Positions 331 to 20,911 of a DNA stretch of 23,068 bases are shown piece by piece. Made by a program: the position numbers and the translations under genes. This DNA is from Zygophlyctis sp. KS116 (taxonomy: Eukaryota > Fungi > Chytridiomycota), in assembly GCA_054661495.1 (NCBI GenBank), contig BAAFSQ010000157.1:1-23068 (forward strand), in the 5' to 3' direction. The notes under the pieces were generated by a model. It was not told the DNA's origin. It saw only the letters and a list, made by a program, of their open reading frames with translations, and searched no databases. Every line of letters starts with the position of its first letter. Position 1 is the first letter of the stretch.

Positions 331-1107
331 TTGATAATATAATTCAGCAAGCTTCAAGCCGTTTTAAAGTTTATGAAATACAGATTTAACCTGGTCAATC
401 CTTTAACAATTGTAATTCTGAGACGTTGAGATTCCGTAGCAGAAATTAAAATTGTAATTTCTGTTTAGTTTGTTCACCAATTGAAAAAAGTCTTATTAGC
501 AACGGGTGCTCTGTAATTGTTCCATTTCGAAGAGTGTGGACGATTTTGGTGAAGGCTATTTAGGCCGCAATATTAATGACATGAAATTCTTCACTGGATC
601 TATCGGACAAGTCTATTCAAGATTTTCTGGTGAATTATATATTCTTAGCTAACCGTCGTCGTGTCTGATAGCAGGACAGAAATACTTGGATATATTTACA
701 GAATAAGGACATGGATATTTCAGAACGTTTTTTATATCAATCATACGAAAAGATTCTGAAATGGGCTGAAATCAAAAAAAAAATATGTACAGAATTAAAA
801 CCAAATTTCAAAACTAATGCTAGTCTTACTACCTTCAATACCTAATTTTCAATCGTAATCAATGGAGCTTTTGACGATCAATATCTACAGCCAAAGAAGG
901 AGGGTCAGACTGACAAAGGGGGGATTCATTCAGGTTTCTCCTTGTTTCTCAGAGAAACTGTGTATACGCAATATATACAAGAACATTATATATGTATATT
1001 TATTTCTTTGTTATGACTTTAATAGTGAGGAGTCTGATAAGGCGCTCGGATGAAGCGGAAAATTTGAACTTTTCTCGCCATAAAATTTTTCTTGTTGTTA
1101 TCAAATT

Positions 1108-1713
1108 ATGCAATCATTTCTTGCTCTTCTTGCTCTCTATCTTTCCACTGCATGTTCCAAAACATCTAATAATGCATTCTCAGACTACTCTCTAATGATT
1201 ACTCAAAAGGTAGCTTCAGAAGCTGTAACTAATTTGACTGAGAGTGGACATACTCCTCACTTGGTAAAGGATACAATTGATGTTTTTGTGCAAACTGCTC
1301 CGTCCATAATTGAAGAAGAATTAGGAGCTATTAAATCTGAATTAGAAAATGAAAATCAAAAATCACTTTCAAAAAGATCACAAGGAACAAAACAAGGTGC
1401 ATTTAGAAAAGGAGCTTCTCATGCCAAGTTTGCTACAAACAAAATTCGACAAAAAATGGAAAATTCTCTATTAAACAAACAAAATGGATTAAGCAAGAGA
1501 TATTTTGCTTCAATGACTGAAGTTACTCTCGGAACAGTACTGAAAGGAACAGTATTTGGATCAATAATAATCTTGGTAGGAATTTTATTACTGAACTTGA
1601 TCTTTTTCTTTTCTGATTTATGCTTTCGGTTTTGGAGATTTGGATTATGGGGACCCATGTATGGATATGGAGGATATGCCGGTGGGCCTTATGCTCCTGG
1701 TGGGTACTACTAA
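1108..1713 (+). CDS. Prepro-protein A, 201 aa: signal peptide, two LSKR Kex2-type sites, TM helix, Gly/Tyr-rich tail
   Basis: Intronless ORF starting MQSFLALLALYLSTACS. Contains SLSKR|SQ and GLSKR|YF, the hydrophobic run VFGSIIILVGILLLNLIFFF, and the tail GPMYGYGGYAGGPYAPGGYY. Confidence 0.85.
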   Translation: MQSFLALLALYLSTACSKTSNNAFSDYSLMITQKVASEAVTNLTESGHTPHLVKDTIDVFVQTAPSIIEEELGAIKSELENENQKSLSKRSQGTKQGAFRKGASHAKFATNKIRQKMENSLLNKQNGLSKRYFASMTEVTLGTVLKGTVFGSIIILVGILLLNLIFFFSDLCFRFWRFGLWGPMYGYGGYAGGPYAPGGYY

Positions 1714-1780
1714 AAACGAAAATTTTAAAAACAAATTTTTACATTCAAATTTTACGTATTTTTAATTGAATTGATTTGAC

Positions 1781-2395
1781 ATGATCAGCCTATATTTTCT
1801 ATTTTTACTTATATCCAGAGCATATGCATTGTCAAGTACAGATTTAAAAACTATCAAACTCAATCAAATAGGGAAAATTGTTGATGCATCAATTCAAAAA
1901 GCCCAAATAAAAGTTCAAGTGCCACAAAATGATCCTCAAGTCTTAAACTTTTGTAAAGAGTTTAGAAAGGTTTCTATAGGAACTCTTGGTTTTTACAATG
2001 ATAAGATTTACAAGGCTGCATTAAAATCTGAGTCACAGGCATTCAAAGTAGTAAATATGGCAGTCTATGAAATTTATAGCAAAATGATAAAGTTGTTACA
2101 TTCGTCATCATCAATATTTAAAAGAGCAGGATATTTTGAAATAATCTGGATGCTCTTAAAGCAGATGGTGTATCTGATGATTATTAGTATATCTGCAATG
2201 ATTCTTGTAAACATTCCTAAAAGTAGAATAAGGCGATGGTATTGTCAAGATCACCCTTGTGAGAATGATCAAGATGACTTGATAAATGCAACTAGCGGGG
2301 ATGATTTGGATGATTTAAATTTTGATAATCTCAAAGGATCTGACGATCATTTCAACCTAGATAATGATCAAGACTCTGATTTTGATAACTTGTAA
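1781..2395 (+). CDS. Prepro-protein B, 204 aa: signal peptide, IFKR site, TM helix, YCxxHxC motif, Asp-rich tail
   Basis: Intronless ORF starting MISLYFLFLLISRAYA. Contains IFKR|AGYF, hydrophobic MVYLMIISISAMILVNI, WYCQDHPCENDQDDL and an acidic tail. Confidence 0.85.
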   Translation: MISLYFLFLLISRAYALSSTDLKTIKLNQIGKIVDASIQKAQIKVQVPQNDPQVLNFCKEFRKVSIGTLGFYNDKIYKAALKSESQAFKVVNMAVYEIYSKMIKLLHSSSSIFKRAGYFEIIWMLLKQMVYLMIISISAMILVNIPKSRIRRWYCQDHPCENDQDDLINATSGDDLDDLNFDNLKGSDDHFNLDNDQDSDFDNL

Positions 2396-2469
2396 AAGTC
2401 TAATTTTAACGTATATTTGCGCTTTGCTTTTACTGATCTGCTCTTGCACTGATCAAATTTTAATTTGAG

Positions 2470-2943
2470 ATGCTTTCATTGCTTACAGTCATCGTTTTTC
2501 TCCTGTACTCTGCAAGATCATCTAAATTTCCAGTTGAGAAACTCCTACTTACATTCGAGTCACGAGTTGGTAGATTAGATCCTGTTTTATATTCTGTTTT
2601 ATCTACAAATATACGATCAGTGACACCATTGATTCTAGATAAATACTCTAAATTAGCCAAGGAAAATCCTTTAAAGATTGAATTTTATGCTAAAGCAGCA
2701 TCATCTGAATTGAAAAATTCAATATCACCATCAAGAAATTGTCAACAATTACAAAAAAGACAATTTTACAAATGTCCTGTTGGAGCTGCAATGATTACGC
2801 TATTAAGCGTATCTTCTGTTATTATTAGTGGTCTTGCATTCTTTATATTCCTTAATTACTTTAGAGAAATTTCTCATCAACAGTATTGTTTGACTCATGA
2901 CTGTACAGTTGATCCTAATGATCTTTATGAAATTAAAGCGTAA
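2470..2943 (+). CDS. Prepro-protein C, 157 aa: signal peptide, LQKR site, TM helix, YCxxHxC motif
   Basis: Intronless ORF starting MLSLLTVIVFLLYSARS. Contains LQKR|QFY, hydrophobic MITLLSVSSVIISGLAFFIFL and QYCLTHDCTVDPNDL. Confidence 0.85.
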   Translation: MLSLLTVIVFLLYSARSSKFPVEKLLLTFESRVGRLDPVLYSVLSTNIRSVTPLILDKYSKLAKENPLKIEFYAKAASSELKNSISPSRNCQQLQKRQFYKCPVGAAMITLLSVSSVIISGLAFFIFLNYFREISHQQYCLTHDCTVDPNDLYEIKA

Positions 2944-3086
2944 CAAGAATATTTATTAACGTTAGAAATGATAAATATGGATTTTATCAAGAATTATATA
3001 GGATAAACTAGACCAGCGTTTCAAAAACTATAAAAAAATTCTGGTTCAAACAACAAATTTTTCTTGTTTTTATCTTTTGAGAGGAA

Positions 3087-3530
3087 ATGAAGGGATTTAT
3101 TCTAGTTTTATTGTCAATGACAATGGTATTCTGTAGAGCATTAACTTCTTCTGATGTAATGCAAGAGATAATTTCTAAATCAAAATCTTTTATTAAATCT
3201 AGACAAGAATTATCAGCTTTTATTCCAATTTCTAAAGTTTTTAAGAATCAAGGCCAGGAAATTCTAGACAAGAGATTAAAAATAGTTTTGGAAAGGCCAA
3301 CTACATCAGAAGCATTAAAGCAGACTCAATTGACTAAAAGAGATTTACTTCAAAGCCTGAAAAACTTGGAAAACTTGAAGAGTAAATCCATCATCAAAAG
3401 ATCAACAGGAGCTTTTGGAGTCATGGAATTTATTTTCAGTTATATGGTACTGGGAGTTATGATGGTGGCAACTGGAATTATACTAAAATTCTTTTACATG
3501 AAATTACATAATAAAACAGTGGATTTTTAG
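3087..3530 (+). CDS. Prepro-protein D, 147 aa: signal peptide, LDKR/LTKR/IIKR sites, C-terminal TM helix
   Basis: Intronless ORF starting MKGFILVLLSMTMVFCRA. Three [L/I]xKR sites, then hydrophobic FIFSYMVLGVMMVATGIIL followed by a short basic tail. Confidence 0.85.
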   Translation: MKGFILVLLSMTMVFCRALTSSDVMQEIISKSKSFIKSRQELSAFIPISKVFKNQGQEILDKRLKIVLERPTTSEALKQTQLTKRDLLQSLKNLENLKSKSIIKRSTGAFGVMEFIFSYMVLGVMMVATGIILKFFYMKLHNKTVDF

Positions 3531-3599
3531 ATTTTATTAAAAGTGATCATATAATTAATTGTCCAGACTGATTGTATATTGTTTTGATAGGCTCAGGTG

Positions 3600-3951
3600 A
3601 TGGATAAACACACAGAGTCTCTTCTCCTGCGTACATACTCTCCTGACCAACTAGAGAGATTAAAAGCAATTGAGAAATCATCCAAGCGGAATGGAATATT
3701 GTGTGGTATAATGGGTATTTAATACATACTAATCAACAGTCGGTAGTGTAGTTGGCGTGCTGTTTTACTTTAGGAAACTTAATGGTGGAAAAGTATCAAA
3801 ATACTATGCTGGAATATTGTCTTTATTAAGCGGTTTATCAATATCGCAACTGGCAACTCATTATCTGTTTGTCAGAGACAGTGATCATATCAGGTTTGAA
3901 CGAAGAATGATTGCAGCAAAACTGACAGAAGCAAGCAAAAGAAATCATTAA
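3600..3951 (+). CDS. Small two-TM hypothetical membrane protein, 108 aa
   Basis: ATG at 3600. Removing a 25-nt intron at 3715-3739 (GTATTT...TACTAAT...CAG) joins MDKHTESLL...GILCGIM to VGSVVGVLFYF...ASKRNH. Confidence 0.75.
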
Positions 3952-4108
3952 TGAATAATATATTTTTAATTTTACAACTACATAAATTCATCCTTGATTT
4001 AATAATATTGATGATTGGTATGAAACGTCAGAGACCTTTTCTATTTATAGATATAGCAATGCGGTAAACGGAGATCTAATTATAGAATAGAGCTTGGTCA
4101 AAAAGTAA

Positions 4109-4144
4109 ATGAGCTCTAATAGTTCTATGAGCTCTAATAGTTCT
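4109..4144 (+). repeat. 18-bp perfect tandem duplication covering the start codon (ATGAGCTCTAATAGTTCT x2)
   Basis: Seen directly. It encodes MSSNSS twice; a degenerate third copy begins at 4166. Confidence 0.9.
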
Positions 4145-5052
4145 CATACGACTTGTTATCCTATAATGAGCTCTACGGTTCTGCCAGAGTTTAATACAAT
4201 TCTGATCAGTGATTCAATTCCAGAAACAAAAAATCAAGCTGCTCTAGAATCATACTTTAAAACATTGGGAGTGGCTACAAAAAATGGTAAATCTGCATTC
4301 CAATGCTCAAAGAATGATGACTATGGCAAAGTCCGATATTTCACCACTGCATACATTTCATATCTTGTGGCTACTCAGTCCAAAGATTGTGGAAATACAA
4401 AGCCATTACCTAAATTGTGTAAAAATACCATTGATATTGCCATAAAGACTTTTGATGATTTTGTAGTTAATAATCAATGTGTGGGCAAATCTGTACAACC
4501 AATGCAAAAGTCATTTCAAAATTCCATGAAAAGTATCGATACAGGAGCAAATCAAAATGGATGTATATCTGGATTTTATTTAGAGCTTGGACAATGTGGT
4601 ATATTAATTTTACTTACAATTAAGGATTCCTTGGAAAAAAGGATGCTTTAAACTATTGCAATAATATTAATTCAACTGATATCTGCTGTCAATCCTTAAA
4701 TAGGACTGAACTTGCAATTTCTGGATCAGTAAATGAGAAAAAAAACTCTAGTAATTTAAATCTTATCATTGGACTTTCAGTTGGAGCGCTGGTATTACTT
4801 TTACTTGTAGGAGCATTTATATATCGTCGTAAACGTCTAGTAAGGGATGAATCAAAGAATATACCGCAATCAAAAGATTTATCTAAATTGGAAGAATCAG
4901 ACACTTCTCTAGAAACGAAGATCCGAAATTCAGATCAATCCTTTTCTCTATCAATACTATCATCGGTAGATTCTGTTGATGTGTCTACTATAAATTCACA
5001 GAAACCACCTAGAAGATTGGGGAATCAAAGCTTGAGAAGCATGCAGTTTTAA
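4109..5052 (+). CDS. Single-pass membrane protein with a Cys-rich N-terminal domain (10 Cys) and a Ser-rich cytoplasmic tail
   Basis: A 26-nt intron at 4599-4624 joins ...CISGFYLELGQCG to FLGKKDALNYC...DICC. TM LIIGLSVGALVLLLLVGAFIY is followed by RRKR; TAA at 5050-5052. Confidence 0.8.
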
Positions 5053-11757: not shown

Positions 11758-12795
11758 ATGATCATCTTTGCTTCTCCACTTGTCAAAAAGTATTCTAGTC
11801 CATTCTTTTCCCTAGCTTCATTAATAATTATTGGCTCGCTTGTAGCCGTTTGTCTACTGCCCTGGTTTTTTGCGTATGCATCAGGATGTAATTCATAATC
11901 CTTTAATACTAGCGTTTTGGTTAAAAGAAAACTATTTTCTTGAACAGCCGAAAATCGCCCTGACGAATGCATATATTATTGAGCTTGTCGGTACAAGGTC
12001 TAATGATCTACCGCTTGTATTGTCATGGTCGTCAAATGAAACGTATAACCAAATTGCAAACACATATAGCAGAGCACCAATCGTCAAGGTAAATATTTAG
12101 TATTTTACATTAGTTTTGGATGAATGATTTGAATAACGATGGTCTTAATGATGAATTTGATTTTCATATTTCAATGCCAGTTCTCCCTTCAGAGAATATA
12201 TTGTCTGCTAGGATTGCATTTGAGATTAAATTAGAATTAAGTTCAGTCTTTAGACTTGAAATGTATTCACTAGTAATTGCGGATTCTTTCTTTCCTGTTG
12301 CTTCGCAATCACTTGATATACTTGGTGATTTAAGCTTGATATCAAGATCATCTCTGTATTTCAAGGCTCATAAGGACTCAAAAGACTTTGATTATAGAGT
12401 TTTAAATTTTACGAGTATACTTGGAATATCGCAAGATCCTTTATCATGGGTTAATTTAATAAGGGATTATAATCATAGGGATGGTAATCTTTTTCCTACT
12501 AATTCAAGTCAAAACTAGCATAGTGAATGATCATAAAGTTTGGACTCCATCAAAAGGTTCTTCTTTTCTTATAAATGGGCATTTTAAAATTCCAGTTAGT
12601 AGAGTGTTTTATACTCCAGGATACGCTGAAGTTTTGAAAAATGGATGGATACAGTATCTATCTTATTTTATTCTTGTATTTAGCATTGTATATGGATCTG
12701 TATGGTTTTTCCTTCATAATCAATTAATTTCTACTTTTGTTGTAAATCATTACGACTCAAAGGAAACTACGGCTCTCAAATCTTTAATGTATTAG
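11758..12795 (+). CDS. TMEM231: Transmembrane protein 231 (ciliary transition zone, MKS module), about 320 aa
   Basis: ATG at 11758. Three 25-nt introns (11888-11912, 12089-12113, 12484-12508). N-terminal TM, then FWLKENYFLEQP, DLNNDGLND, and YTPGYAEVLKNGWIQYLS before a C-terminal TM. Confidence 0.9.
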
Positions 12796-17202: not shown

Positions 17203-20200
17203 TTACTTTTTCCCTTTCTTCTTTTTATCGGGTTCTTCAGCTGCACCTGCTGCAAGAAGTTCTGCGTTTTTTGCAGCTTCAATTGCTTTTGCAACTTCTT
17301 CGTTTTCTGCTAAAACTCTTGCAATATATTCAGTTCTTTTACCCAAATCTAAAGTACATAAAGCCTCCGCTTCAGATGATAATGCGGACAATAGGTCTTT
17401 GAGTTTGTTGTCTGAAATTCTTGCATCTTTTTCTCTTTTTCTTTCAGATTTAATCCTTGAAATTTCTGCTAATGATACTTTCAATCTCGCTTCTCGTTCT
17501 GATTGCATTTTAGACCAACTGTCTTCATCTAAAAATGGTATTTGACTATCCTCAACAAGAGACGTTTCTGAATCTGCAGTTGTTGGCCGTAATTGCCTTT
17601 TCCAAGGCTTATATTTTAAATCAGAACCTGGATTTGGAGTCATGAAAATTGGCTGGATTGAATTATTATCCACAGATTTAAGATATGCATCTCGGATATC
17701 ATACGCTCTTGCAGATCTACCAGGCTGGGCAGACTCCCATGATTCTTTGATGGCACGATATCGATCTTCTTTTTCTGTGTCTTTGACGACAGTCATCGAC
17801 ACTGTATCAGTAGATATAATTCTCAATTTCCATGGAGTGTCTATAATAGCTGTAGTTGATGCCGCCTTTTCATCAGGAGAAGGCATTGTGGGTTTTCTGG
17901 TTCTCTTGGAAGGAGAAGATTTATCCATTGGCACCCCGACTTTTAATCCACCTCTTGATAATGGTCTAGTTCCTGCCTCTGAGCTTGATATAGTAGAATT
18001 AGATGTGCTAAAAAAAGGTGGCTTGTCAATTGATGCTTGTAATATATACTTATGTTTGGGTAAAGATGACCTTGCAGATCCCTATTTTTAAATTAAGGTA
18101 ATTGATACCTGAGAAGTACTATTTTTATCGCGCATAGAATTATTTCTATCATCTTTTGTTCTGTCAGATGTTTTGATATTTGGATCTTCAGATGGATAGA
18201 AAATGTAAAGTGGAATGTTTACTATCCCACGACCGTAAGCACAAAATATTTGAACATCATTATCATACAGTTCTAATTTGATAGGCAAGCTTTGAATTGA
18301 AAAATTAACCTGCAGAGAAGCAGGATTAAGAATCCCATCTTTGATTTTTAAAAGGTATCGGAAAATAATGTTATGCTTATTTGTGATGTATGCTTCTTCA
18401 AAGTCTTGGACTATTCCTTTTGTCCAAACTTCTGGCGGTCTTTCTGGATTATTAACAATTGGCGTGTCGGAAATAAGGCGAACTTTGAATTTCCCTTGCA
18501 TTCGTGTTAGGGGAGTCTTCAATTCGGCAATCAGAGTGTATCCATTCTAATGTTCATTCTGAAAAAAATACCTTATTTGGAGTATAATTGCGCCTTCTGA
18601 GATTAAAAAAAGCATTGGGGATAACAGAATAATCATCATTGTCTATCATTTTCAAACTACCATATGTTTGAATGAAGTCAGGCAGAAATAAATTTGCAGA
18701 TAAATATGTGGGATCCGAAAAGTAAAGAATTTGCCTAATAATTAATTTGAAAATCGAAATACTTAAAAACTATTGACCATGAGCCTGGAGGCTGCGGTGT
18801 GTAAGAGTCCTCATAGTCTTTTACTGTTATTCCATACGCTTCTTGTAAATATTTAGCTTCATCATCTAGTCCAAAGTCGTCTTTTGCAAAAAACGTAATA
18901 TAGTACGAGGTGGAGCAATCCACGATAAAACGATAAGCCAGTTCTCTTATTATTAGCTACCAAAAGCGCATAATTACCTATTGAGAATCTTAAGTAGGAT
19001 AGTTCCAACCGAGTTTGTAGATGTCTGAATAATTGGAATCTGATTTTCTGAATTAGTCCAAGAATATGGTTCGACTGTTAGAGTAGAAGTCTGATAATTT
19101 GCTCTTCCGAAAGTAGAAATGTTGATCAACACTTCACATTCTTTAGAATCTTCCAAGGAGCCTATGGATTTATTGCTTTCGAAAATTACTAATCAAGGGG
19201 GGAATACGATAATTATCACTTGGCTTGGCAGGATCGTTGATACATTGATAGGTTTTAATATTCTTGAAATTAGAAGTAGGGTGGTAGACCACAACATCAC
19301 TATCTATTTATTTTGTCCAAATTACCTAAACAAGTATACGAATTCGTCAAATGTGATCCAGGTATCAATGGTATGACATGCATTATCTACTTCTGGAATA
19401 ATAGATTTTTTGTGTGATGTTGGACTAAGCATTCTCTTCTTATTTGTACTAAAGTATTTGGCTAATTAAATTTAATTACCCACAGGAAAAGTAACTCCTA
19501 AGTCGTAAATACTTTGAAGGTTCCATTTCCTCTTCATTTGATTGATCTAATTCTTTAAATTCACAAATTCTAAAATAGAATCCCATTGTTTTCATGTCTG
19601 TGTCTCCAAACTCATTATCCGAGTTCTTAAAATCAATTCTATTTATGTTACCTGAGGATCCCGATATGAAAATATCATGGCTGGAGACTCTGTCTTGGTT
19701 GTAGGAATACTTCCTTTAGCAAACAAAGATGCTTGTCTTTCTCTAGAAGGGCTGTTTGACCTGCTTACATTGATCGTGGGTTGATTCAGTTTTACAGATA
19801 AATTTTTGAGATGGTTCCATAGTTTAGAGGAATCAGAAGCGATATGCAGTTTTTCTGGAAGGAGACCTCTTAATGCATATAATACGTCAAAATCCCCTTG
19901 CTCTGGAAATTCACTTATTTCTCTATAACTAGTAATTAAGAAAACTAAGGCAAAATACCTATAAACCGCAATTTTCAAAATCGCTTTGGTAATTAGTACC
20001 GGCCATATCTCTGATATAATAGGACTAGAAACAACAATCGGTTTTCCATCTGATGAGCATGGAATACGATCATCGACAGTAATCTTTCTCCAAGATCCAA
20101 GCCAAAATAATTTCACTACATACTTTCCAGATGGATTATACATTGGAAGCCCATCTTTTCCTTTTGGATATATACAATCCCAAAGAAAATAATCTTCTCC

Positions 20201-20911
20201 AGGATATTGCTTTGTTATCTTTCCTTGATCATAGATAAAATGAAATATGCTTAGTATATGTGTCATTAACCGAGAATTGAGTAAGTGTTTATTAGCTTGA
20301 AATAACTTTGAAGTTTTTCCCAAAGAGTCTGAATGTTCATGAATATCAATCTCTGCCATACTTGGAGATTTATCCTTTTCTGATACATTGGCTTGAGAAG
20401 AATTTGATTCTGGCATTAATGAAGCCTGTGCGACAATATTCAAATCAGATTTCTCAAAGTCATTAACCGATGCTTCAGATAATTGATTTTCATAAATAGG
20501 CTCATTTGGAGTCGCAGCAAATGCTAAACCATGAGTATTTGAAAAAAACCCAACTGTTTCTCCTTTCAATGAAGAATGACCATGAAATATTTCATCTTGT
20601 ATGATTGTAGCTTGCATTATTACTGGCGATTGTCCTTCACTGACTAATTCCATTGGTTTTTTGTAATGATCGAATTTCCCTCTTAGCGATCGTGGATAAA
20701 TTATAGTATCATTATCTTCAAACTGACCCTTTGTAGCCCATTTTTCTGCAGCGATATCAGCATCATTCCATTCTGGGAAAATAACGACTGGTAAATCAAA
20801 ATCAACGTTTTCTTCTGGTAAAACTTCCTGAGCTGACAGAGTGGTAGCGGCTATAAAATCATTACCAACCACAGACATCCTCTTCTTTAGAACATCCTTG
20901 TTTGACTTCAT
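17203..20911 (-). CDS. ADGB: Androglobin-like protein (calpain-like domain plus ADGB C-terminal region), about 1151 aa, apparently globin-less
   Basis: 9 introns: 19929-19958, 19626-19651, 19449-19479, 19300-19325, 19162-19189, 18946-18977, 18735-18762, 18547-18571, 18082-18108. Spliced CDS 3456 nt. Motifs FPEWNDADIAAEKW, PMYNPSGKYVVKLFWLGSWRKITVDDRIP, EIWPVLITKAILK, QPPGSWSIVF, YTPNKNGYTLIAE, HKYILQ, KDTEKEDRYRAIKESWESAQPGRS. Confidence 0.85.

Follow-up and report, generated by a model that had tools for sequence, protein, structure and literature searches.

Kexin is present in most of the fungi surveyed (PMC5371821). Kex2 prefers Arg at P1, Lys at P2 and Leu or another aliphatic residue at P4, and LxxR is described as an accepted extended motif (PMC8528282; PMC6258133). 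The effectors SnTox3, ToxA and SIX1/4/6 belong to the class with a Kex2-processed pro-domain (K2PP); this pro-domain is proposed to be a chaperone and is often without secondary structure, and the products are soluble and secreted (PMC8528282). Candidalysin, released from Ece1 of Candida albicans, is a 31-residue peptide that is excised at both ends by Kex2, trimmed by Kex1 and secreted (PMC5784256). The yeast killer preprotoxins K1, K2, Klus and KHR mature into disulfide-linked soluble heterodimers (PMC13211469). The KEX2-processed repeat proteins (KEPs) consist of repeated peptide units, and 178 of them were reported from 14 of 19 Chytridiomycota strains (PMC7329392). The Kex2-processed fungal products compared here are soluble effectors, repeat peptides or toxins. 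In this study, we focused on a tandem array of four open reading frames (ORF1 to ORF4) at positions 1108 to 3530 of contig BAAFSQ010000157.1 from the chytrid Zygophlyctis sp. KS116 (assembly GCA_054661495.1). The window means the whole stretch of 23,068 nt that was analysed.

The array is a real, conserved and undescribed gene cluster, and its products are likely to be membrane microproteins matured by Kex2. In the reading that we prefer, and to which we give even chances, Kex2 would cut single-pass precursors and leave anchored microproteins of 42-89 residues that act together in the surface or secretory membrane of the cell itself. According to the ORF list of the window, the four ORFs all run in one direction on the forward strand, spaced 67, 74 and 143 nt apart. 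They share a hydrophobic N-terminus, a helical pro-region, an aliphatic-x-K-R site, a single hydrophobic helix and a polar tail. An initial annotation of this DNA had described four co-oriented ORFs with one layout, and the coordinates, spacing and hydropathy peaks agree with that description. The ORFs are as follows.

1108..1713, forward strand: ORF1, 201 aa, with a signal-like N-terminus, two helices (the second acidic), KR, a cationic helix, KR, a hydrophobic helix and a tail rich in Gly, Tyr and Pro
1781..2395, forward strand: ORF2, 204 aa, with a signal-like N-terminus, three helices, KR, a hydrophobic helix, a basic stretch, the motif W-Y-C-x-D-H-P-C-E and an acidic tail
2470..2943, forward strand: ORF3, 157 aa, a paralogue found in this species only, with a Cys/His tail like that of ORF2
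3087..3530, forward strand: ORF4, 147 aa, with a signal-like N-terminus, a conserved helical pro-region that holds two more invariant L-x-x-R motifs, KR, a hydrophobic helix and a short tail

Relatives were collected by word-index searches and by an exhaustive profile search of 1.84 billion representatives, which gave 6 matches. Those found were alleles and a few divergent proteins, named at most 'hypothetical protein'. Taking one protein per divergent cluster left 11 non-redundant proteins (3 ORF1-type, 3 ORF2-type, ORF3 itself and 4 ORF4-type), so that counts over 11 proteins leave out near-identical alleles and fragments. Identity is 41-45% by region for the ORF1 relatives (P0017 and P0020), 67% and 30-34% for the ORF2 relatives (P0011 and P0015, respectively) and 29-39% for the ORF4 relatives (P0016, P0012 and P0019). 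Searches of viral contigs and of prokaryotic genomes found no relatives.

Seven KR dipeptides occur in the four ORFs, where about 2.1 would be expected from composition, and P4 is L or I in all of them. An aliphatic P4 (L/I/V) is found at 7/7 array KR versus 5/18 KR in 13 other ORFs of the window (Fisher p = 0.0016). The C-terminal pieces beyond the last KR are 70, 89, 60 and 42 aa long in ORF1 to ORF4, and the 19-residue hydropathy peak of each ORF (2.0-2.8) lies downstream of that site, near the C-terminus. Both the aliphatic P4 at all seven sites and the four product lengths had been given by the initial annotation and were reproduced. The KR sites are listed here.

1372..1377, forward strand: first KR of ORF1, residues 89-90, kept in 3/3 ORF1-type proteins
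1495..1500, forward strand: last KR of ORF1, residues 130-131, predicted Kex2 site
2120..2125, forward strand: KR of ORF2, residues 114-115, predicted Kex2 site
2755..2760, forward strand: KR of ORF3, residues 96-97, predicted Kex2 site
3270..3275, forward strand: internal KR of ORF4, residues 62-63, where relatives keep L-x-x-R with Q or R at P2
3336..3341, forward strand: internal KR of ORF4, residues 84-85, where relatives keep L-x-x-R with Q at P2
3396..3401, forward strand: last KR of ORF4, residues 104-105, invariant in 7/7 aligned sequences

Conservation of KR in relatives, which the initial annotation had named as a check, was found throughout: in 11/11 non-redundant proteins, L or I occupies P4 of the last KR, and this KR sits 8-17 residues ahead of the hydrophobic helix, which indicates that this site is under selection. 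Over the same proteins, P4 is aliphatic (L/I/V) at 18/20 KR, against the 5/18 in other window ORFs. The ORF1-type proteins carry a second conserved KR about 40 residues upstream of the last one. The internal L-x-x-R motifs of ORF4 may be extended Kex2 sites or mere helix-face residues. Kex2 processing of the array precursors is thus likely and well supported by inference from these patterns.

The hydrophobic helix after the last KR is predicted at the following positions.

1552..1608, forward strand: predicted transmembrane helix of ORF1, residues 149-167
2153..2209, forward strand: predicted transmembrane helix of ORF2, residues 125-143, the least hydrophobic of the four
2794..2850, forward strand: predicted transmembrane helix of ORF3, residues 109-127
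3429..3485, forward strand: predicted transmembrane helix of ORF4, residues 115-133

This helix has a mean hydrophobicity of 0.60-0.91 and a hydrophobic moment of 0.06-0.19, and is therefore non-amphipathic. The 12 residues after it hold 1-4 K/R in 10/11 proteins, no KR lies downstream of it in any of the 11 non-redundant proteins, and the tails that follow are polar and 10-61 residues long. One RR, in P0002, is not kept in the ORF2-type proteins P0011 or P0015. The tail of the ORF2 type carries the conserved motif W-Y-C-x-D-H-P-C-E, which has an echo in ORF3 and is the best-conserved part of the subfamily (42% identity in the mature part versus 25% in the pro-region for the distant pair). The ORF1-type tail, rich in Gly, Tyr and Pro, has a conserved aromatic/Gly stretch. 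Because the helix is non-amphipathic, is followed by basic residues and by conserved polar tails, and precedes no further KR, it is predicted to be a stop-transfer anchor in a type I topology, with the N-terminus in the lumen and the tail in the cytosol. By hydropathy and inspection, the N-terminus is hydrophobic in 10/11 proteins and the eleventh protein is truncated. The pro-regions of 3/3 ORF1-type proteins retain an N-glycosylation sequon, which fits a lumenal position. According to the rules of membrane protein biogenesis, such a helix halts in the endoplasmic reticulum (ER) membrane during synthesis; the pro-domain would therefore not have to shield it from water. The charged tails of 10-61 residues beyond the helix led us to reject GPI anchoring. 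A possible likeness between the ORF1 tail and the Rcr1 family found no support in Pfam.

Two further observations concern the tails. The ORF4-type protein P0019 has a tail with four closely spaced cysteines that are missing from the other ORF4-type proteins. P0020 and P0024, which belong to the same cluster, are identical to the end of the hydrophobic helix and wholly different afterwards; this switch may come from a short intron left in place, from a frameshift or from misassembly.

Structure models of ORF2 and ORF1 show three long helices ahead of the last KR (pLDDT 55-77 in that part), and a lumenal pro-domain of three helices is predicted from these low-confidence models. Each pro-region has 0 or 1 Cys, and none is conserved across the subfamilies. 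The relative conservation of the pro-region and the mature part differs by subfamily, ORF2 being the reverse of ORF4 and ORF1 even. Within the ORF1 pro-region, the segment between the two KR is as follows; in the three ORF1-type proteins it spans 38-41 residues, and further KR lie inside 2/3 of them.

1378..1494, forward strand: cationic helix of ORF1, 39 residues between two conserved KR, with a net charge of +7 in 3/3 proteins and an acidic stretch (-5 to -6) before it

These features place the array beside, and apart from, the systems introduced above. Like the K2PP effectors, the array-type proteins have an N-terminal pro-domain, a KR/LxxR site with an aliphatic P4 (11/11) and a C-terminal mature product; their N-terminus, hydrophobic in 10/11, may be a signal peptide. 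They differ in that the pro-region is predicted from the models to be helical, and is conserved and larger than most of the products, and in that the product itself is a predicted single-pass membrane peptide, with a non-amphipathic helix and a polar tail in 11/11. Like Ece1, they have a hydrophobic peptide immediately behind a Kex2-type site, and ORF1 and ORF4 have several such sites; unlike candidalysin, the helix is followed in 11/11 by a conserved polar tail and by no KR. Ece1 was not among the matches of the family and relative searches, which included no direct pairwise comparison. The killer preprotoxins resemble the array in being secretory precursors with several Kex2 sites and a predicted membrane helix in the product, whereas the array proteins have 0-1 Cys in the pro-region and end in an anchor and tail. 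As to the killer-toxin fold, the structure searches, made with low-confidence models, gave only generic helical matches. Kex2 sites, and perhaps a signal peptide, are shared with the KEPs; in contrast to them, the array proteins have a membrane anchor and no internal repeats, and the segments between KR vary in length and sequence. No coding repeats were found in the array beyond short chance pairs. A works-like analogy is offered by the maturation of flavivirus prM to M, in which a kexin/furin protease removes a folded pro-domain and leaves a small membrane-anchored protein. It is an analogy only, since prM/M differs in fold, in the two anchors of M and in its viral origin, and the search of the viral structure library showed no similarity.

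ORF2, ORF3 and ORF4 are paralogues on the evidence of profile comparisons. The hhalign E-values are 1.6e-5 for ORF4-ORF2, 1e-3 for ORF4-ORF3 and 7e-4 for ORF2-ORF3. Once the signal and KR are taken out, P0015 scores 18.8 bits with the ORF4 pro-profile and P0016 scores 16.0 bits with the ORF2 pro-profile, each above 300/300 shuffles; the remaining cross-pairs of pro-profiles are weak. With the ORF2 mature profile, ORF3 reaches 13.1 bits and likewise exceeds 300/300 shuffles. ORF1 stands further off, with hhalign E-values of 0.01-0.1 against the others, and in pro-only comparisons 22, 128 and 23 of 500 shuffles score as high. The local score of 58 between ORF1 and ORF4 over their whole length is reached by 0/1000 shuffles, although shared anchor composition may explain it. 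ORF1 resembles the rest in its layout, in the three predicted helices before the last KR and in its upstream motif, which leaves two options: a very ancient paralogue, or a partner gene in the same cluster. The diversified paralogue family proposed by the initial annotation is thus borne out for ORF2, ORF3 and ORF4 but not for ORF1. The pro-helix that it described as alignable is recovered between ORF3 and ORF4 and between ORF2 and ORF4, while no automated alignment recovers the ORF1 segment in the register given there. In a tree the relatives group by gene position, with support of 98/98 for ORF1, 99/99 for ORF2 and a weak 57/74 for ORF4; this tree has long branches and presupposes the homology of ORF1, which is unproven.

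The cluster is also found in a diverged species. A metagenome contig (L001), one of two loci returned by the locus search, carries ORF1-, ORF2- and ORF4-type genes in the same order and on the same strand, without an ORF3 counterpart. Past the array it has an unrelated Pro/Glu-rich gene and then the 5' end of the ABC transporter of the window. The other locus (L002) was dropped as a bacterial contig with a chance match over 27 residues across an intergenic stretch. Identity between the window and L001 is 46% for ORF1, 34% for ORF2 and 33% for ORF4, compared with 47-64% for the transporter. The array genes have dN of 0.50-0.65 and dS of 1.2-2.6 (dS being near saturation), and are under purifying selection. 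From the synteny with L001, the excess of dS over dN and an identity below that of the transporter, it follows that the array is old, constrained and fast-evolving. The L001 gene in the slot between the array and the transporter (L001 2248-3237, reverse strand) encodes a Lys-, Pro- and Glu-rich repetitive protein of 329 aa with hydrophobic ends, like a GPI-anchored surface protein, and has no Pfam match. L001 also has a perfect 37-nt tandem duplication across the stop codon of its ORF2-type gene (L001 1417-1490).

A short motif, AAATTTT, precedes each gene of the array.

1083..1089, forward strand: AAATTTT, 25 nt before the start of ORF1
1747..1753, forward strand: AAATTTT, 34 nt before the start of ORF2, with two more copies further up
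2455..2461, forward strand: AAATTTT, 15 nt before the start of ORF3
3055..3061, forward strand: AAATTTT, 32 nt before the start of ORF4, within a 20-nt repeat 95% identical to 1083-1102

The motif is the core of this 20-nt repeat, which precedes ORF1 and ORF4. AAATTTT lies 15-34 nt ahead of the ATG in 7/7 array genes of both species, and at 1/9 other gene starts, which were guessed from ORF lists. Six of the 12 plus-strand copies in the window are at most 70 nt from the four array starts. As background, it occurs in 1.8% of window 45-mers and in 1-7% of shuffled upstream stretches; the motif was spotted post hoc, so these rates flatter it. An AAATTT-like signal has been described before ribosomal protein genes in microsporidia (PMC2803860). 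The upstream motif suggests, at the level of sequence, that the array consists of separate genes that are strongly and jointly expressed. Together with the conserved order, it favours joint action of the products.

The array is not an assembly artefact, because a single contig from an independent freshwater metagenome (run X3) covers 1090-3600 with 23 substitutions, and its indels sit only between or after genes (2453 and 3536-3539). In all sequencing runs compared, indels were confined to positions outside the ORFs and the KR sites were free of listed differences. A second copy suspected near 3052 proved to be a match of only 35 nt. At least half of the sampled words were present in 3/24 listed runs, two of which are freshwater metagenomes and the third of which may be the source itself; runs with less than 0.2 of the sampled words (11/24) were left out of the habitat inference. 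The 31 coding differences among alleles comprise 10 synonymous and 21 non-synonymous ones (one codon counted twice), and the resulting pN/pS of about 0.6 does not show positive selection. An apparent stop at codon 181 of ORF1 is an artefact of scoring two changes in that codon one by one.

The initial annotation had also called the ORFs intronless. The window holds 18 candidate introns of about 25-29 nt, versus 9.6 in shuffles, and branch-like motifs are present; the scan for such short introns gave no in-frame candidate inside any of the four ORFs, in keeping with that claim. A frameshifting 40-nt candidate at 3126 is contradicted by intact ORF4 relatives. The possibility of a single spliced polyprotein was also rejected: in-frame GT-AG joins could link ORF1 to ORF2 and ORF3 to ORF4, but none links ORF2 to ORF3, their length is 85-254 nt throughout, and in both species every ORF begins with a hydrophobic stretch and has an upstream motif of its own.

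In the anchored-microprotein reading, the signal peptide would bring the precursor into the ER and the helix would hold it there by stop-transfer, with the N-terminus in the lumen and the tail in the cytosol. Kexin would then cut it in the late Golgi, just outside the membrane. On sequence grounds, we consider these two steps quite probable. The pro-domain would allow a peptide too short to insert by itself to fold, to travel and to stay inactive until cleavage, and the extra KR/LxxR sites would help to strip it off. A role as chaperone, carrier and safety catch, of the sort suggested for K2PP pro-domains, is by analogy slightly favoured. Finally, the co-expressed mature peptides might form a small mixed membrane complex, with the freed hydrophobic N-termini facing outward and the tails (the Cys/His motif, the Gly/Tyr/Pro stretch) bound to cytosolic partners; such a complex, which the initial annotation had raised as a possible hetero-oligomer, is a tentative proposal. 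Of the three products that the initial annotation had considered, a surface microprotein or micro-channel fits best, and a soluble lytic effector is not supported.

Several observations weigh against this reading. The models of ORF2 and ORF1 are poor overall (pLDDT 56 and 51), the ORF2 helix is only marginally hydrophobic (+1.1 on a crude scale), and the assignment of signal peptides and topology comes from hydropathy. ORF1 may be unrelated to the other three. The sole evidence of expression is weak: one metatranscriptome contig of 266 nt over 1135-1400 of ORF1, which may be DNA. In the ORF4 type, conservation is higher for the pro-region than for the anchored part in 6/6 pairs (e.g. 58% versus 26%), which a functional ectodomain would fit equally well. 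This last point also favours the main rival, in which the released pieces, either the helical bundle or the cationic helix of ORF1, act outside the cell like effectors or antimicrobial peptides and the anchor just delivers them. The two conserved KR that flank the +7 helix behind an acidic stretch in 3/3 ORF1-type proteins agree with it, as many precursors of antimicrobial peptides are built in this way, with an acidic pro-piece followed by a cationic helix; so do the two more invariant L-x-x-R in ORF4-type proteins. However, extra KR would cut 2/3 of the cationic helices, the internal ORF4 motifs lie within aligned helices and most relatives show Q at their P2, and the conserved tails (ORF2 Cys/His, ORF1 aromatic/Gly) indicate selection on the anchored side too. 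We regard this rival as serious but rather unlikely. A combined scheme appears improbable. In it, the co-expressed precursors would assemble via their pro-domains, Kex2 would strip these and free the cationic, membrane-active helix of ORF1, and the anchored peptides would make up a pore or a fusion apparatus where the fungus meets a host alga or mates.

The lytic effector among the options of the initial annotation would be a secreted, soluble peptide like candidalysin, released after the last KR and masked by the pro-domain until then. A Kex2-type site directly ahead of a hydrophobic stretch, the Gly-rich, hydrophobic new N-termini of the ORF4 subfamily, the lower hydrophobicity of the ORF2 helix and the faster divergence of the array than of the neighbouring transporter (33-46% versus 47-64%) would suit such a toxin. 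But candidalysin is cut at both ends, while KR follows the helix in 0/11 proteins here; a helix that is non-amphipathic and leads into basic residues and a conserved tail would be expected to stop in the ER membrane; and with at most one Cys per pro-region there is no conserved disulfide heterodimer of pro and mature parts of the killer type. A pro-domain-masked soluble lytic peptide is therefore not supported by the data, and we consider a toxin of this kind quite improbable. Small fusogens or membrane-contact proteins activated by Kex2, whose freed N-terminus engages the membrane of a mating partner or host, are less probable still. Furin primes viral fusases by a cut just before a hydrophobic segment of an anchored protein, and the Gly-rich and hydrophobic new N-termini of the ORF4 type are again in line with this. 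A Kex2 substrate of fusase-like kind has been postulated for yeast mating and is unidentified there (PMC2063940). Yet the anchor begins just 8-17 residues after the cut and leaves no heptad region for fold-back, the mature ORF4 part is poorly conserved (24-53% identity), and nothing ties the array genes to mating or infection. Least probable of all are type I membrane proteins that act as receptors or adhesins, either uncleaved or cleaved with the ectodomain still attached. In Candida Ywp1 a propeptide cut by Kex2 can stay bound (PMC6258133), and in the array both sides of the cut show conservation. Nevertheless, the P4-aliphatic KR beside the membrane is kept at 25-45% overall identity and therefore favours cleavage, after which little ectodomain would be left to hold the pro-domain and no conserved disulfide to retain it.

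The initial annotation recognised no known family, and searches of Pfam, NCBIfam, PDB, fold libraries and the ESM Atlas were likewise without a match. With E allowed up to 1, Pfam returned no family for any of the four ORFs; for 9 family members it gave only single-member matches below the cut-off (best E 0.00029, in one row), as did NCBIfam. PDB sequences yielded nothing usable (best E 0.043), and Foldseek reached a best E of 0.99 in the PDB and 0.31 in a viral structure library. The best VIA-align Z-scores (9.8 and 7.9) were to mixed helical bundles and below the level that the tool itself treats as meaningful for helical proteins, and the best feature scores in the ESM Atlas were 0.77 and 0.81, with TM of at most 0.51 by query. 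The fold searches used poor models, so the lack of a match is no proof of a new fold. Literature listings and the openly accessible papers cited here contain no account of a family of this kind.

If the anchored-microprotein reading is correct, a folded pro-domain that yields tiny membrane-anchored proteins would be a different use of the Kex2 pathway, in poorly studied freshwater fungi. The array genes are candidate means by which these fungi alter their surface or interact with another cell, and the shared upstream motif is a handle for finding co-expressed genes.

The array is adjoined by a high-copy repeat (window 1 to about 900), and in three DNA runs the summed contig depth over 1-400 exceeds the array's by a factor of tens. 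An ORF within the repeat (64-330) has a weak nSTAND NTPase match below the cut-off. On the other side, a small gene at 3599-3953, with a probable 25-nt intron from 3715, encodes a short protein with two hydrophobic stretches; it has neither the signal nor the KR layout and is therefore not an array member. The product of a probable intron-containing gene at 4109-5051 has a region with Cys and, at its C-terminus, a hydrophobic helix with a basic stretch behind it; this gene has no Pfam match above the cut-off and no counterpart in L001. Gene content and the short introns point to a flagellated fungus with a compact genome, or to a near relative of one. The neighbouring genes of the window include, by Pfam, a fungal-type mRNA triphosphatase and the ABC transporter, which has a TMD0 domain. 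Further along, TMEM231 and androglobin/calpain-like genes are found at 11876-12795 and 18088-20911; TMEM231 and androglobin are associated with flagella.

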